NCBI GenBank assembly: GCA_963765675.1
Contig: CAVXXK010000001.1
Coordinates: 1,888,001 to 1,952,000 of the forward strand
DNA length: 64,000 nt
Source: an uncultured delta proteobacterium
GTDB lineage: Bacteria; Desulfobacterota; Binatia; Binatales; Binataceae
Direction of reading: 5' to 3'
Part shown: piece by piece, positions 3,943 to 61,051 of the stretch
How the letters are laid out: each line of letters begins with the position of its first letter
Numbering within the stretch: the stretch's first letter is position 1
Position numbers and translations under genes: made by a program
The notes under the pieces: generated by a model
The model's database searches: none
Seen by the model: only the letters and a program-made list of their open reading frames with translations
Told to the model about the DNA's origin: nothing

Positions 3943-4018
3943 TGGGCGGTCGCCAAGCTGGTAAGGCACCAGGCTTTGGACCTGGCATTCGAAGGTTCGA
4001 ATCCTTCCCGCCCAGCCA
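3943..4018 (+). tRNA. tRNA-Gln(TTG)
   Basis: Cloverleaf with anticodon arm CCAGG-CT-TTG-GA-CCTGG, T-loop GGTTCGAATCC and encoded CCA. Typical position upstream of prs. Confidence 0.97.
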
Positions 4019-23334: not shown

Positions 23335-24465
23335 ATGAGTACCGCGCAGGATCTCGTGGTCGATTGCGACTCGCACGTGATGGAGCCGCCCGACCTCTGG
23401 CAGAACTATATCGAGCCGCGCTTTCGCGACCGCGCGATCCGGATCGCGATCGATCCCGCCGATGGGATGGAAATGCTGATGATCGATAATCAGCCGATGC
23501 TCAAAGGCGTGCTGGCCGGGTTGGGCGGAGCGAACCTGCCGCGCGAGTCGCTGTTCGTCCCGGGCCAGAAAAAATATCTCGACGGATGCCCTCCGGCGTC
23601 GTACCTGCCCGAGGAGCGCGTACGGATGCTCGACGAATGGGGCGTCAGCGCGGGGGTGGTCTTTCCCACCGTCGGGATTCTATGGGACACTTCCGACGAC
23701 GCGCTGGCGCTCGCCTACACGCGCGCCTACAACAACTGGCTGAATGATTTTGCGCTGCGTGCACGTAATCGCGTGATACCGATCGCGCATATCGCGATCC
23801 AGGAACCGGTCACGGCGCTCGCGGAGCTCAAGCGATGCCTCAAGCTCGGGTTCAAGGGGATTTTTCTCGCGCCCGAAACGATCGGAGGCAGGCGCTTCTC
23901 GCATCCTGATTTCGATCCGATCTGGAGCGAATGCGAAGCCGCCGGAATTCCGGTATGCCTGCACGTGATCGTGCGCTTCAACCGCGCGCCGGGAATCATG
24001 GGCCAGTTCTATCAGCCCGGCGAATTCCGCGCGGTATACGGCTTCGCACTGGGCGGATTTGCGCAGGTGGTGCCGGCCGCGATGACGATGATCGCCGACG
24101 GGTTGTTCGACCGTTTCCCGCGGCTCAAGGTGCTGTGCGTCGAAGCGGGCTGCGGATGGGCTCCGTACATCATGGATCGGATGGACGAGAAGTATGAGCA
24201 TCTGGGATGGACCTTTCCGACCAAGCTTAAACCGTCTGACTATTTCCGCCGCAACATTTGGGTAGTCGCCGAACCGGAAGAGCGGACGATCGGCGCAACG
24301 ATGGAGTTGTTGGGCGAAGAGCGGGTGCTGTGGGGCTCTGACTATCCGCATATCGATTCGACGCTCGCGGCAGCCCGCCTGATTCGCGAAAGCGTAGCGG
24401 AGTTAAGTCCCGAGCGGCGGCGCATGCTTCTCGGGACCAACGCGCGCAATGTGTTTCCTGAGTGA
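23335..24465 (+). CDS. Amidohydrolase_2 family metal-dependent hydrolase
   Basis: DCDSHVMEP, EAGCGW and WGSDYPH motifs. Confidence 0.9.
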   Translation: MSTAQDLVVDCDSHVMEPPDLWQNYIEPRFRDRAIRIAIDPADGMEMLMIDNQPMLKGVLAGLGGANLPRESLFVPGQKKYLDGCPPASYLPEERVRMLDEWGVSAGVVFPTVGILWDTSDDALALAYTRAYNNWLNDFALRARNRVIPIAHIAIQEPVTALAELKRCLKLGFKGIFLAPETIGGRRFSHPDFDPIWSECEAAGIPVCLHVIVRFNRAPGIMGQFYQPGEFRAVYGFALGGFAQVVPAAMTMIADGLFDRFPRLKVLCVEAGCGWAPYIMDRMDEKYEHLGWTFPTKLKPSDYFRRNIWVVAEPEERTIGATMELLGEERVLWGSDYPHIDSTLAAARLIRESVAELSPERRRMLLGTNARNVFPE

Positions 24466-24507
24466 TTGAACTCGAGTTCTGAGGTCCGACTGCCGAGGTT
24501 CCAAGAG

Positions 24508-24711
24508 ATGCCGAGTGAGAAGGCCAAGGACAACAAGGCGCTGATGGCGACCTGCGCCGCGTGTGGCAAGCCAGTCTCGACCGAAAGCGCGGTCGCGCTG
24601 ATGGGTGCAGAGGACGGCCGCCGCAAACAATCGGTGGTCTGCGTCACCTGCGCCAACAAAGGCTGGCGCCCCCCGGGCTTTGGCGGTCTATACTCCATCC
24701 GCCCGCACTAA
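24508..24711 (+). CDS. Small hypothetical protein with two CxxC motifs (possible Zn ribbon)
   Basis: CAAC...CVTC in a 67-aa ORF. Confidence 0.55.
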   Translation: MPSEKAKDNKALMATCAACGKPVSTESAVALMGAEDGRRKQSVVCVTCANKGWRPPGFGGLYSIRPH

Positions 24712-24762
24712 GGTCGCAACGTATCGCGCCCAAAGACCGAGCGCGCAGCATCGCGAAGTCTC

Positions 24763-24799
24763 GCAGAGGCCGGGATTTCTCCCTGCCGTCGAAATGACG
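24763..24799 (-). repeat. CGTC-tagged REP-like unit (family A), left arm of the inverted repeat around the GIY-YIG gene
   Basis: gcagaggccgggatttctccctgccgtcgaaatgacg is 35/37 complementary to 25177-25213. Confidence 0.9.
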
Positions 24800-24825
24800 A
24801 ATGGGGGATCGTGGTAGCTCGATAG

Positions 24826-25110
24826 CTAGAGCTGTTCCGCTAAATCGGTCCACTTCGGATTCATCGATTCTATGAGTTTGATCTTTTTTTCGCGGCGCCA
24901 TCGCTTGACCTCCTTCTCGCGCGCGATCGCGTCGAGCGGACCATCGTATTCTTCAAAGTAGACCAGCCGAGTGATGTTGTACTTTGTGGTGAATGCCGCC
25001 GGGCGGCTCTCACGATGCTCCTGCACGCGGCGTAGGAGATCGTTAGTTACTCCGACATACAAAGTCCGCGAAGGACTCGCGAGTATGTAAATAAAGCATC
25101 GCCGCGCCAT
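24826..25110 (-). CDS. Stand-alone GIY-YIG nuclease (94 aa)
   Basis: FIYIL...LYVGVT.DL.RR..EH, FT.KY, AIAREK..K.W.R and NP.W.DL motifs. Confidence 0.93.
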   Translation of the reverse strand: MARRCFIYILASPSRTLYVGVTNDLLRRVQEHRESRPAAFTTKYNITRLVYFEEYDGPLDAIAREKEVKRWRREKKIKLIESMNPKWTDLAEQL

Positions 25111-25176
25111 CTCCGTCAGCGTAGTGCCTTCACTTTAATTCCGCGAGAAGCCTGCGTCTCTACCCGAGACCCCCTA

Positions 25177-25213
25177 CGTCATTTCGACCGCAGGGAGAAA
25201 TCCCGGGCTCTGC
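25177..25213 (+). repeat. CGTC-tagged REP-like unit (family A), right arm
   Basis: cgtcatttcgaccgcagggagaaatcccgggctctgc. Confidence 0.9.
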
Positions 25214-25277
25214 CAGCTTTCGCACTTCTGAGAACCTGGCCGTGTGCAGTAGCCTCCGTACCTCTCGCCGCGTCGGA

Positions 25278-26564
25278 TCAATCTACTCGGGCGTGCTCTG
25301 CTTGGTCGGCGCGGGCTTGTTCGGCGGCGGCTATTTCGTAGCGGGTCTTGCCGGGACCCGTTTCGGGCAGGAAATACATCGCGACGATCGGCAAGAACTG
25401 AAATACCAGGAAAGACAGCATCACGGCGCGCAGCCCGATGTGCGCGGCCAGCGCTCCGCCTAGAAACGGCGATACGAACGCGCCGAAGTACCCGATCGCC
25501 CATACGAATCCGATCGCGGCGCCCGCGCGGACTGGCGTCATTCCGGGCAGTTCCATCAACAGCGTCGTGATCGCGGCCAGCGATCCGGCCGAGCCGATTC
25601 CGACCAGCACCAGCGAGAGCCGAATCCAGGTCGGGTCGGGAATCATGATCGCGCCGGCGCATCCGACGAGCGTCGTGATCGCTACCGGCCAGGTGAACGG
25701 CTTGCGCAGCCCGGTGATGCCGGTGCCGATTCCGCCGATCGCGGCGGCGAACATCCCGGTCAGCGGCAGCACCTGGGTCATCAGCGACGCTTGCGACATC
25801 GTCATGCCGCGAAACACGCGGAAGTATTGCGGCAGAAACGCGGTGTAAATCTGGAACACCCACATCCCGCCGAACAGCCCGGCCGCGATCAGCAGCACGT
25901 CGCGCATCTTTGCGACTTCCGCCAACGCAGAGCCGCGCGCCACCGCCGATTCCGTCGTTACAGCAGGCGGATCGACCAGCGCAGTGCGGCGCTCGCGGCC
26001 GAAGAGCGTGCATAGCAGCGCGACGCCCGCCGATCCGATCCCATACCACAGCAGCACCGAGCGCCAGGACGATCCCACCGCGACGAACAAGGCAGGAGTG
26101 AAGCGGAAAACGGCGGTCAGCCCGACGTATCCAAAGGCGAAGTTGATCATGTTGATGTAGGGCCATTCGCCTTCACCGAACCACTGCATCGTGAGCGTGC
26201 CCGGCGGCGCGATCACGATTCCGTAGCCGATACCCTCGAGTACGCGGCACGCGAGCAGCGCCGCGAAGTTCGGAACGTAGCCGCTCAGGATCTGTCCGCC
26301 CGCCATCAGCCAAATACCTATGATCATCGCGCGCGCGGCGCCGACGCGTTCCGATACCACCGCGCCCAACAGCGAAAAGATGCCGATGCATAGCGCGATG
26401 ATCGAGATGATCAATCCGGCGCTACTGAGCGAGATGCCGAGGCCGTTCTTGATTTCCTCGAGAATCGGCGCGGGCGCGAGCCAGGTGAGCGACTGCGCGA
26501 TCAAAAGGAGCAGCAGCAGGACTTCGATAACCCATCGATAGGGCGAAAGTTTATGTGACTTCAC
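25278..26564 (-). CDS. MFS transporter (CynX/NimT-like)
   Basis: About 12 hydrophobic segments and motif-A-like GAVVSERVG. Confidence 0.85.
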   Translation of the reverse strand: MKSHKLSPYRWVIEVLLLLLLIAQSLTWLAPAPILEEIKNGLGISLSSAGLIISIIALCIGIFSLLGAVVSERVGAARAMIIGIWLMAGGQILSGYVPNFAALLACRVLEGIGYGIVIAPPGTLTMQWFGEGEWPYINMINFAFGYVGLTAVFRFTPALFVAVGSSWRSVLLWYGIGSAGVALLCTLFGRERRTALVDPPAVTTESAVARGSALAEVAKMRDVLLIAAGLFGGMWVFQIYTAFLPQYFRVFRGMTMSQASLMTQVLPLTGMFAAAIGGIGTGITGLRKPFTWPVAITTLVGCAGAIMIPDPTWIRLSLVLVGIGSAGSLAAITTLLMELPGMTPVRAGAAIGFVWAIGYFGAFVSPFLGGALAAHIGLRAVMLSFLVFQFLPIVAMYFLPETGPGKTRYEIAAAEQARADQAEHARVD

Positions 26565-33881: not shown

Positions 33882-34013
33882 TCCCATTCGTCATTTCGAA
33901 CGGAGGCTGCCGGAGTGAGAAATCCCGCGACTCCTGCATACGCCCGCGTACTCAAAAGCGCCTGGGTACGCAGAGGCCGGGATTTCTCCCTGCGGTCGAA
34001 ATGACGAATGGGA
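33882..34013. repeat. Family A REP doublet (REPIN-like, no gene)
   Basis: tcccattcgtcatttcga...gagaaatccc, spacer, gggatttctc...tcgaaatgacgaatggga. 33969-34012 matches 24762-24805 at 43/44. Confidence 0.9.
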
Positions 34014-53654: not shown

Positions 53655-53707
53655 GTTGGTTGCACTAATCGCTTCGCGGAGATCCTTCACCTGCGGCTCA
53701 GGATGAC
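53655..53707 (-). repeat. Family A variant, left arm of a 53-bp inverted repeat
   Basis: 51/53 complementary to 55041-55093. Confidence 0.92.
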
Positions 53708-53774
53708 TAGACGGAGGGTTTGCGAGAAAATCGAGAGCCGTCTTCGAGTCGCGCGAAATTGCCGGCCGCGCAGG

Positions 53775-54911
53775 TCACAGCGCGCGGAGTTCGGAGGAGA
53801 TATCGCGGCGCATCGCGAGGATCGCGGGCACCATCGCGCTGAGCAGTCCGATCGCGGCGGCGATTAGAAAGCTCTCGACCGCGACGATCGGTACCAGCCG
53901 CAGGATTTGTGCGAACGGGCCCAGCACCGCGCCCGCGTACGGAACCAATGCCAGCGCGACGTACGCCAACGCGCATCCCAGCGCGCCGCCGGCGCATCCG
54001 ATGAGCGCGCCTTCGCCGAGCAGCATCACCATGATGATTCGCGAGGTGAACCCGAGCGAGCGCATCACCGCCAGCTCGCTTTTGCGCTCGCGCACCGCCA
54101 TCGCGGCCGTGTTCGCGGCGACCATCCCGATCACGACGACGACGATGAATGCCAGAATCTTTACTCCGTCGAACAGCAGCCGAAACATCCGGAGCTGATT
54201 GAGCGCGAGCGTGATCTCGGATTCGGTGGTGGTCTCGAAGGCGGAATTGGCGAAGCGGGAATCGACCTCGTTGATAACCGCGGGAATCGAGTCCGAACTA
54301 TCCACTTTGATGAAATAGAGAATGACCTGGCCGTGCACCGGCGAGGCTTGGTCAACAAAGTCGCGCCGCATGATGAGCGCATTGCCGGGACCCTTGCGGC
54401 CCAGCGCTCCGAGAATCTTGACCTCGAGCTTTCCCTCAACGCCGCTCAGCGTAATCGTGTCGCCGACTCTCCATCCAAAGCGCTTCATCATCGCGCGGTT
54501 GGCGATTCCTCCGGAGCGCACCTGCTGCAACTGCTCGACGACCGACCGCGAGACGCCCCAGTCGGGCCAGATCTCGCGGATCACATCCGGATCGACTCCC
54601 ACGCCCGCGATCAGATCTGTCGTCTTGCCGTAGTTGCCGACCCATACCGCGTAACCGCTGACCGCCATGACATGCGGCATCGCACGGATGGTTGGCTCGT
54701 ACGCGGCGGGAAGGGCGTAAAAGAATCCGGCCTTGTTGTGGACGATCACGCGCAGGTCGCTCGCTGAATCGTGCAGGATCTGATCGACCACCGCGGGCAG
54801 GCTGATGAGCGCGGCGAAGATAAAGATCGACACGCCGATCGAGAGCACGGTCAAAAGTGTGCGCCGCCGATTGCGCAGCAGGTTGCGGAAGATCAGGGGA
54901 AGATATTTCAT
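53775..54911 (-). CDS. FtsX/MacB-like ABC transporter permease
   Basis: RNLLRNRRRTLLT and AVRER..ELAVMRSLGF motifs. Confidence 0.9.
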   Translation of the reverse strand: MKYLPLIFRNLLRNRRRTLLTVLSIGVSIFIFAALISLPAVVDQILHDSASDLRVIVHNKAGFFYALPAAYEPTIRAMPHVMAVSGYAVWVGNYGKTTDLIAGVGVDPDVIREIWPDWGVSRSVVEQLQQVRSGGIANRAMMKRFGWRVGDTITLSGVEGKLEVKILGALGRKGPGNALIMRRDFVDQASPVHGQVILYFIKVDSSDSIPAVINEVDSRFANSAFETTTESEITLALNQLRMFRLLFDGVKILAFIVVVVIGMVAANTAAMAVRERKSELAVMRSLGFTSRIIMVMLLGEGALIGCAGGALGCALAYVALALVPYAGAVLGPFAQILRLVPIVAVESFLIAAAIGLLSAMVPAILAMRRDISSELRAL

Positions 54912-54938
54912 CGGTGGCGCACGATGCGGCGGAGCAGC

Positions 54939-55015
54939 ACCCTCACCCACGCGTCACGGCGATTGCAAAAAAGAGCAATCGCCGCGCCGCGTCGCCCTCT
55001 CCCGGAGGGAGAGGG
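54939..55015. repeat. Family B palindromic repeat
   Basis: ACCCTCACCC, hairpin GGCGATTGC...GCAATCGCC, then CCCTCTCCcggaGGGAGAGGG. Confidence 0.75.
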
Positions 55016-55040
55016 TATTTCTGGTAACTCCTCAGTTGGT

Positions 55041-55093
55041 GTCATCCTAAGCCGCAGGCGAAGGATCTCCGCGAAGCGATTAGTGCAACCAAC
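55041..55093 (+). repeat. Family A variant, right arm of the 53-bp inverted repeat
   Basis: gtcatcctaagccgcaggcgaaggatctccgcgaagcgattagtgcaaccaac. Confidence 0.92.
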
Positions 55094-60740: not shown

Positions 60741-61051
60741 TCATTCCCGCGCCCTTCGGCAGGCTCAGGGCAGGCTCCGGCTGGTGCACGAGAGAAATCC
60801 CCGGACGAGAGGCCGCTGCTTGAGTTGTGGGCTTGGAGCATGGACGCCTCGGGATTCCTCGCCTATGGCTCGGAATGACGGATGTAGGCTCGATGCATGA
60901 GTATCGTAGTCTCCGCCGAGCCCTCGACTCGTCATTTCGAGCCCAAGGCGAGGAATCCCGAGGCGTTCGCGCACTCACTTGCGAGTTGCATAGAGGCCGG
61001 CGGCCGAGCACGGGATTCCTCACGCACGGCAGCCACGCGCGCGGGAATGAC
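60741..61051. repeat. Array of four alternating family A units with a nested CCCTTCGGCAGGCTCAGGG palindrome
   Basis: Units at 60741-60800 (+), 60844-60880 (-), 60930-60966 (+) and 61012-61051 (-). The inner pair is 34/37 complementary. Confidence 0.88.

Follow-up and report, generated by a model that had tools for sequence, protein, structure and literature searches.

Introduction

The closest described relatives of the locus studied here are the Ssn nucleases and their repeats. Chenal et al. (Nat Commun 2025, PMC11893778) defined the Ssn family as single-domain GIY-YIG proteins equivalent to CDD entry cd10448 (GIY-YIG_unchar_3); the Neisseria meningitidis member, SsnA, has 94 aa. According to that paper, SsnA recognizes NTS (CGTCATTCCCGCGMAVGCGGGAATCYRG), a 28-nt repeat that includes dRS3; it binds this repeat on one strand and solely as single-stranded DNA (ssDNA), and cuts a few nucleotides upstream. 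Cleavage is lost in the Y6A, Y17A and E64A mutants, the three bases before the palindrome are the most important for cutting and the C after it for binding, and no cleavage of double-stranded DNA (dsDNA) was detected. Here we describe such a locus in a 64,000-nt stretch, called the window below, from an uncultured delta proteobacterium of the Binataceae (assembly GCA_963765675.1, contig CAVXXK010000001.1, positions 1,888,001 to 1,952,000), where a 94-aa GIY-YIG gene lies between two inverted CGTC-tagged hairpins. The locus is a further member of the Ssn/SRM kind, with a variant hairpin.

The same source states that three SsnA homologues likewise bind their flanking repeats solely as ssDNA and cut their own repeats, that at least one repeat of the associated type (SRM) lies near 71% of homologues and on both sides of 42%, and that 81% of genomes with >200 SRMs encode a homologue, homology being defined as tblastn E<1e-10 to Neisseria SsnA (PMC11893778). 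Its Discussion notes the insertion sequence (IS)-like architecture of NTS-ssnA-NTS and the parallel with transposases associated with repetitive extragenic palindromes (REPs), as a hypothesis only. The repeats themselves have a longer history. Di Nocera et al. (BMC Genomics 2013, PMC3733652) described CGTC-tagged REPs in families CGTC-1 to -4, including dRS3 of Neisseria (= CGTC-1) and RPE-4/-6 of Rickettsia, and concluded that these lack a dedicated transposase, as an earlier note on the window had correctly stated. No enzyme dedicated to these repeats came out of that work, and their GIY-YIG partner was recognized only afterwards.

The earlier note, made from the letters alone, had proposed that the small GIY-YIG protein is the cognate nuclease of the CGTC-tagged repeats around it. 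This is right but already published (Chenal et al. 2025, PMC11893778). New here is a G.A-interrupted, GNA-triloop variant of the hairpin that stands beside the window gene and most of its close relatives and that the published repeat pattern misses; also new is an Azospirillum locus with the complete repeat-gene-repeat module, which 11 further records of the genus lack. A full-text search judged by titles and abstract openings, with most subscription journals outside its reach, found no paper beyond Chenal et al. 2025 linking GIY-YIG genes with CGTC- or REP-type repeats.

A GIY-YIG gene bracketed by inverted hairpins

The elements of the locus are as follows.

24826-25110, minus strand: ssn-type gene for a 94-aa single-domain GIY-YIG nuclease (open reading frame, Pfam, homology)
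24763-24799, minus strand: left hairpin repeat (SRM-like), CGTCAT tag at its right end facing the gene, core 24775-24798
25177-25213, plus strand: right hairpin repeat (SRM-like), CGTCAT tag at its left end facing the gene, core 25178-25201
24746-24811, no strand: extended left arm of the inverted repeat, 66 nt, 82% complementary to 25165-25230
25165-25230, no strand: extended right arm, partner of 24746-24811, the arms lying 353 nt apart

The two arms of 37 nt are complementary at 35/37 positions and 26 nt separate the stop codon of the gene from the left arm and 66 nt its start codon from the right arm, figures of the earlier note that all agreed with our re-reading. The left repeat reads CGTC-ATTTC-GA-CG-GCA-GG-GA-GAAAT-CCCGG on the minus strand and the right one CGTC-ATTTC-GA-CC-GCA-GG-GA-GAAAT-CCCGG. 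In a window of 61.3% G+C, the ungapped inverted-repeat score at the gene was 33; 300 random window positions of the same geometry averaged 8.6 with a maximum of 15, and 0/300 reached 33. The flanking repeats at the nuclease gene are thus real and far beyond chance. As the earlier note had it, the gene is the only open reading frame (ORF) between the repeats, provided that ORFs of at least 50 aa wholly inside the arms are meant; other ORFs there cross the arms.

The protein matches Pfam GIY-YIG (PF01541) over residues 5-77 (E=3.2e-13, 50.2 bits, cut-off 22.6); this is its only Pfam domain, without a second or extra DNA-binding domain. The Tyr, Arg, Glu and Asn residues expected of such an enzyme are all present: Tyr8, Tyr18, Arg28, Glu65 and Asn84 were invariant in an alignment of 26 relatives. 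An AlphaFold2 model (mean pLDDT 88.1, pTM 0.78) gave a compact beta-beta-alpha-alpha-beta-alpha-alpha fold whose structural neighbours, UPF0213 protein BH0048, Slx1 and the N-terminal domain of UvrC, are all GIY-YIG proteins. By fold comparison 1zg2 came first (E=1.5e-4), followed by Slx1 (E ~1e-2, TM-score ~0.6). By sequence, too, 1zg2 was the closest solved structure (E=9.5e-6), and that search returned no solved Ssn structure. The closest solved structures are of the UPF0213/YhbQ-type and Slx1 kinds; these proteins differ in sharing just 22-28% identity and in not being reported with flanking tagged repeats, and Slx1 differs further in needing Slx4 and acting on branched dsDNA. A search of the protein Atlas gave generic GIY-YIG clusters only.

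Homology to the Ssn nucleases

A tblastn search of PLSDB (7.3 Gb) with the window protein found a homologue in an N. gonorrhoeae chromosome record (47% identity, E=3e-11); in pairwise BLASTP the two proteins share 41/87 identities (47%, E=3e-28). Family homology was measured here against this NTS-flanked N. gonorrhoeae homologue, as a proxy for N. meningitidis SsnA. Tyr8, Tyr18 and Glu65 of the window protein align with the catalytic Y6, Y17 and E64 of SsnA (N. meningitidis numbering). A 2.26-kb stretch holds the N. gonorrhoeae homologue together with 7 perfect matches to the NTS consensus; in those closest to the gene the tags point towards it. Its record (L081) is a 2.17-Mb chromosome filed as a plasmid in PLSDB and almost unannotated; the homologue, at 1001-1279, has no ATG, GTG or TTG start upstream of the conserved N-terminus, and the ORF list gives an internal 71-aa ORF only.

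A second reference point is Azospirillum lipoferum 4B, one of the 29 genomes used to define the published motif (PMC11893778). Its homologue is 51% identical to the window protein, and four matches to the published SRM pattern flank the gene. Supplementary Data 4 of the same paper marks as positive for both an ssnA homologue and cd10448 the genomes of G. rosea, T. robiniae, P. ascidiaceicola and B. hipponense, species that are also in our locus set; a word search of its 10 readable supplementary files found no name beginning "Binat".

The window locus thus shares with the Ssn/NTS system a 94-aa single-domain GIY-YIG protein with aligned catalytic Tyr, Tyr and Glu, inverted CGTCAT-tagged hairpins that bracket the gene with the nearest tags facing it, as in Neisseria and Azospirillum, the GTC before the stem and the C after it, and further copies scattered in intergenic DNA, including around a membrane-protein gene (PMC11893778). 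It differs in the hairpin: NTS is a perfect 8-9-bp palindrome.

Relatives of the window protein number in the thousands (6621/6623 candidates at E<=1e-3), and the closest named ones, at 80-85% identity, come from metagenome-assembled genomes of Candidatus Binataceae. Among the database relatives is also a second GIY-YIG paralogue (P0028), 66% identical to the window protein. The genome probably carries at least two ssn genes, and the two paralogues may pair with different repeat subtypes seen in the window.

A variant hairpin missed by the published pattern

The window repeats follow one plan: an unpaired CGTC tag, a 5-bp stem starting A-T/T-A, a tandem G.A, a clamp of 2-3 bp, a GNA triloop and a C-rich tail. 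In the two gene-side copies the clamp has 2 bp and the triloop is GCA. In a strict search of the window, a copy had to carry GTCAT, a stem of 5 nt that closes within 3-50 nt, and a C after the stem. This search found 8 copies, all intergenic, compared with 2.25 +/- 1.55 in 300 dinucleotide shuffles, of which 1/300 reached 8. All 8 read GTC-AT...AT-C, by construction, as the scan required the tag and the trailing C. They fall into three stem subtypes (ATTTC, ATCCT and ATTCC) of the one plan.

Covariation supports the structure. At sites picked without requiring pairing, the outer triplets were complementary in 29/32 distinct sequences, with seven pair types (shuffled partners 5.5, maximum 12 in 1000); the inner pairs were complementary in 24/32 (13.4 when shuffled), and 23/32 had a GNA loop. 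Among 155 near-gene copies at the loci of relatives, GA...GA stood round the inner segment in 107 and a C followed the stem directly in at least 151, in a scan that did not require it. A common core, GA-GCGNAGC-GA within the 5-bp stem, recurs across many phyla (loci L001-L080). This core also translates into recurrent spurious ORF peptides, such as ...VIPSAARDLRL... and ...SSRAQRGICG... (locus L035), and the C-terminal ...RDSSLRRLRSE of database protein P0108 is translated hairpin core.

Compared with the CGTC REPs of 2013, the window repeats have in common the unpaired CGTC or TGTC tag, a stem opening A-T/T-A and a short unpaired C-rich tail, as well as frequent head-to-head dimers, an intergenic position and the lack of an associated Y1 transposase (PMC3733652). 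CGTC REPs have a continuous 8-9-bp stem and a 4-5-nt loop, whereas the window stem is interrupted by G.A/G.A and closed by 3 nt. The published SRM pattern is HGTCWY N(0-2) YYVSBRH N(0-5) WNVSBRG N(0-2) RNCYNB (PMC11893778). As scripted by us, it matched 8 times at the N. gonorrhoeae locus and 4 times at that of Azospirillum; since it recovers the repeats of both, the script works. As it fails on the window and works elsewhere, we place the window in a sub-population with structurally variant SRM repeats.

Association of hairpins with the gene across phyla

A profile scan of one genome per species gave at least 599 matching stretches, of which 595 were confirmed. The best 80 of these 595 matches form the locus set, and 76 of the 80 were testable, 4 having flanks that were too short. 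The loci kept span Acidobacteriota, Pseudomonadota, Chloroflexota, Gemmatimonadota, candidate-phyla bacteria and others. A bracketing inverted repeat beat all 20 controls from the same locus in 56/76, and the arms nearly always carried TGTCAT...GGATC-type sequence. Close to the gene, up to 200 bp upstream and up to 100 bp downstream of it, tagged hairpins reached 4.5-5.5 per kb; beyond 1 kb their density was 0.32 per kb. The enrichment near homologues for which the earlier note had proposed a test was thus found, at roughly 15-fold. At least one hairpin lay nearby at 52/76 loci and on both sides at 36/76, close to the published 71% and 42% (PMC11893778). Of the 36 both-sided loci, 25 had tags pointing out, 5 pointing in, as in the window, and 6 were mixed; most close relatives therefore differ in tag orientation from Neisseria, Azospirillum and the window.

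These figures also bear on a generic explanation, in which ordinary intergenic palindromes or terminators stand next to a small gene by coincidence. It can draw on the unremarkable folding energies of the repeats and on a looser repeat definition, which gave no clear enrichment in the window (10 copies, 5.6 in shuffles with a maximum of 13). It is scarcely credible, and already contradicted, given the 0/300 controls that reach the inverted-repeat score, the roughly 15-fold motif density beside homologues at 80 loci in many phyla and the repeats themselves, which show neither a T-tract nor a terminator-like site. Rfam at gathering scores found only the tRNA at 3943-4015 in the whole window, and nothing at E<=1 in 24600-25400. 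A promoter reading was likewise rejected, there being no sigma-70-like site in 24400-25600.

We consider it very probable that the window locus is an Ssn-type module, that is, a GIY-YIG endonuclease gene flanked by inverted hairpin repeats that its product recognizes. Several points weigh against this reading. The association was measured on the best-matching loci of the scan. The published SRM pattern had 0 matches on either strand of the window, where shuffles average 0.57, and matched near 5/76 related loci, at 3 of them on both sides; under the working definition of the motif used for the family, the window repeats therefore do not qualify. Nearest-neighbour DNA folding of six copies showed no unusual stability (z -0.55 to +0.29), and the minimum-energy fold of both gene-side copies differs from the hairpin supported by covariation; the structure rests on covariation, not on thermodynamics. 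NCBIfam has no specific model for the protein, its sole match being TIGR01453 (group I intron endonuclease) over 30 residues at 18.1 bits, below the cut-off of 56.05. Finally, Ssn homologues differ in specificity (PMC11893778), so cognate recognition in the window is deduced from position.

A model for the action of the nuclease

Judged from its homology to SsnA, the window protein would bind the folded repeat only in ssDNA. Recognition would depend on the GTC tag 5' of the stem, on the stem sequence and on the C 3' of the stem, and Tyr8, Tyr18 and Glu65 would serve to cut a few nucleotides 5' of the tag. Cuts are predicted between repeat and gene on either side, near 25170-25176 for the plus strand and near 24800-24806 for the minus strand. 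Such cutting might trim incoming or replicating ssDNA at repeat sites, or it might serve the spread of the module. Of the proposal that the protein is a structure-specific nickase that spreads or maintains its repeats, homology and association thus support a cognate nuclease specific for structure and sequence; they do not extend to spreading in the manner of the REP-associated tyrosine transposases (RAYTs).

Copies elsewhere in the window

The window contains further tagged hairpins away from the nuclease gene.

33890-33923, plus strand: gene-less copy of the subtype seen at ssn (ATTTC stem), its inner segment being longer; it forms the left half of a tail-to-tail dimer and has glnA and a polysaccharide deacetylase gene as its neighbours
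33982-34005, minus strand: gene-less copy, its core identical to the right arm at ssn, with 44 nt at 97.7% to the left arm
53682-53707, minus strand: second subtype, with an ATCCT stem, at the inner end of arm 53655-53707 (53 nt)
55041-55066, plus strand: partner of the preceding copy, likewise with an ATCCT stem, at the inner end of arm 55041-55093 (53 nt)
60844-60880 (also delimited as 60854-60879), minus strand: third subtype (stem ATTCC), forming with the next copy, across a spacer of 49 nt, a head-to-head dimer of which this is the left half
60930-60966, plus strand: degenerate right half of this head-to-head dimer, imperfect stem (ATTTC against GGAAT)
61015-61051, minus strand: copy with a long G+C-rich inner stem, ATTCC (repeat search)

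CGTCAT-tagged hairpins were accordingly present at each of the places (33.9, 53.7, 55.0 and 60.7-61.1 kb) where the repeat family had been said to recur without the nuclease. The two halves of the head-to-head dimer, 60844-60880 and 60930-60966, are 92% complementary over 37 nt.

The ATCCT pair deserves separate description. Its 53-nt arms (53655-53707 and 55041-55093) are 96% complementary, carry hairpins with the tags inward and bracket a 1333-nt segment that holds a lone ORF for an FtsX/MacB-type permease (53775-54950, minus strand; FtsX E=3.6e-14, MacB_PCD E=3e-8). This is the repeat-gene-repeat geometry of the nuclease gene with better preserved arms, and the locus as a whole (53655-55093) resembles the NTS-gene-NTS clusters around membrane-protein genes in Neisseria (PMC11893778).

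Such an arrangement suits an explanation in which the system serves its host through ssDNA restriction and control of recombination, as in Neisseria. The nuclease would trim incoming or exposed ssDNA at the repeats and lower recombination of repeat-flanked genes, and the copies at its own gene would be incidental or autoregulatory. In favour are knock-out and complementation data from N. meningitidis (PMC11893778), the second repeat-gene-repeat arrangement around the permease and the intergenic position of 8/8 strict copies. This explanation leaves the consistent bracketing of the gene by repeats across phyla unaccounted for, and we hold it to be possible but doubtful.

Does the module move?

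The clearest information on mobility comes from Azospirillum. On plasmid AZO_p3 of A. lipoferum 4B (L082, 870-1486), sufB and sufC are separated by a block of about 510 bp in which an SRM dimer stands on each side of ssn. The suf operon occurs in 11 further Azospirillum records, and in every one (11/11) it matches in two pieces that lack the block; in the three that were inspected (L083, L084 and L085) the intergenic region measures 87 nt, 129 nt and about 30 nt and contains no SRM. The parsimonious reading is insertion of the whole block in one lineage. The search for empty sites that the earlier note had suggested thus showed, in this genus, the whole block to be absent from 11 other records. 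A plasmid locus of Rhizobium sp. CIAT894 was rejected for the same comparison, as matches to other plasmids were confined to the adjacent peptidase gene, with an IS4 element on the opposite side.

The empty sites argue against one further explanation, in which the nuclease gene is a selfish passenger of homing type that inserts into or between pre-existing hairpin dimers, so that the hairpins are its target and not its cargo. GIY-YIG homing endonucleases exist. The window holds gene-less head-to-head and tail-to-tail dimers, and tag-out (25) and tag-in (5) arrangements among the 36 both-sided loci are what varied insertion into dimers would give. The empty Azospirillum sites, however, have no dimer of any kind, so the repeats there came with the gene. 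The window protein, with its one domain at residues 5-77, also lacks a DNA-binding extension of the homing-enzyme kind; enzymes of the I-TevI type join the GIY-YIG domain to such a domain, reside in introns or stand free in phage and cut dsDNA, and the window protein differs from them in having no joined DNA-binding domain and in lying among chromosomal housekeeping genes. With dsDNA cleavage not detected for SsnA (PMC11893778), we regard homing as very improbable.

The earlier note had gone further and cast the nuclease as a RAYT-like mobilizer, the repeat-gene-repeat unit being an autonomous transposable element and the gene-less singlets and pairs non-autonomous derivatives spread by the nuclease. 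Such a role would add to, and does not exclude, ssDNA cutting. The likeness to REP/REPIN-RAYT systems is considerable: a single small nuclease gene, inverted hairpin repeats dispersed as singlets and dimers, and recognition of a folded hairpin with an unpaired tag in ssDNA. RAYTs differ in working through an HUH/Tyr covalent intermediate on GTAG-tagged repeats, whereas the window protein belongs to the unrelated GIY-YIG fold, with hydrolysis and a CGTC tag; for the Ssn-type system it is cutting that is demonstrated, and transposition is a hypothesis. A Pfam scan of 84 window ORFs, mostly of at least 150 aa, found no Y1_Tnp or other transposase family, in line with the earlier note's view that no Y1 or DDE transposase is visible, though at this size range a short Y1 could be missed.

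In addition to the presence or absence of the Azospirillum block, a mobilizer is favoured by the inverted-repeat architecture common to IS elements and REPtrons, the same hypothesis being raised in the Discussion of PMC11893778. The gene-less head-to-head dimer at 60844-60966 has the same geometry, and many relatives lie on very short contigs. There are also local multi-copy arrays: at locus L066 (3476-5424) three repeat-gene-repeat units of about 600 bp follow each other at 97-99% identity, and at L035 (3691-5600) a 726-bp stretch is duplicated at 86% identity, giving two gene copies, and additional repeat modules recur at intervals of about 600 bp.

Other observations speak against a mobilizer. 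The arrays at L066 and L035 are tandem and fit unequal recombination; they do not discriminate between the two processes and were set aside as evidence of transposition. At the loci examined, near-identical unit copies were found in tandem only, none dispersed. The dimer was also considered as a deletion derivative of the ssn unit, and this was rejected: with 60815-60995 aligned to both unit ends, the sequences are alike only in the hairpin and a few scattered bases, and similarity beyond the hairpin is unconvincing. We know of no joining or strand-transfer activity for the GIY-YIG fold. No target-site duplication was seen at the window element or the Azospirillum block, and the latter is one locus in a lineage other than the window's. 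The tags of the two arms are on different strands, which leaves any given ssDNA strand with a single end that could be cleaved. The published work on Ssn shows cleavage only (PMC11893778).

The earlier note had also suggested a test of whether nuclease phylogeny and repeat subtype co-vary, and no such signal was seen: stem type required 35 changes on the protein tree, where shuffled labels needed 38.1 on average and 34 at the least. This comparison, of 55 labelled rows and 18 stem types on a poorly resolved tree (3/78 starred branches), has low power. For an autonomous element with non-autonomous copies there is thus one presence/absence case, in Azospirillum, set against the missing target-site duplication and the missing link between phylogeny and subtype. 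The role of a RAYT-like mobilizer is unproven, and we entertain it as a tentative possibility.

In its strongest form, which we think rather unlikely, this idea would make repeat-ssn-repeat an autonomous mobile element of a new mechanistic class. An ssDNA nickase would act 5' of the tag, on one strand at one end and on the other strand at the other end, CGTC singlets and dimers would be its non-autonomous progeny, analogous to REPINs, and the G.A/GNA hairpin would be a second major repeat class. If true, this would answer how CGTC REPs spread, a question left from 2013, and the published pattern would be blind to a whole repeat class, the G.A-interrupted GNA-triloop hairpins of the window and of Acidobacteriota, Chloroflexota, Gemmatimonadota, candidate phyla and others.

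Genomic surroundings

The window genes identified by Pfam are ordinary chromosomal ones, among them dnaE, prs, the gene for ribosomal protein L25, an hflX-type GTPase gene, glnA, the citrate synthase gene and ispG. Next to the module, an 81-aa ORF (24466-24711, plus strand) starts directly after the stop codon of an amidohydrolase gene (24465) and ends 35 nt before the extended left arm. It has two CxxC pairs (CAACGK...CVTCANKG) and no Pfam match. The amidohydrolase gene, this ORF and an MFS gene form the junction (23335-26564) in which the module lies.

Significance

Taken alone, the locus adds one more pair of Ssn nuclease and repeat, from a poorly known lineage. Its hairpin reaches further. 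The published pattern finds hairpins at 5/76 close relatives and our tag-plus-stem rule at 52/76, and surveys by the published pattern probably under-count Ssn-associated repeats. The repeats so missed are a structurally distinct class built round a G.A-flanked mini-hairpin of the GCGNAGC type. The under-counting matters for the mining of Ssn enzymes as sequence-specific ssDNA cutters. In Azospirillum, the sufB-sufC sites with and without the block bear on the mobility of the module: they are direct evidence, from one case, for gain and loss of repeat, gene and repeat together.

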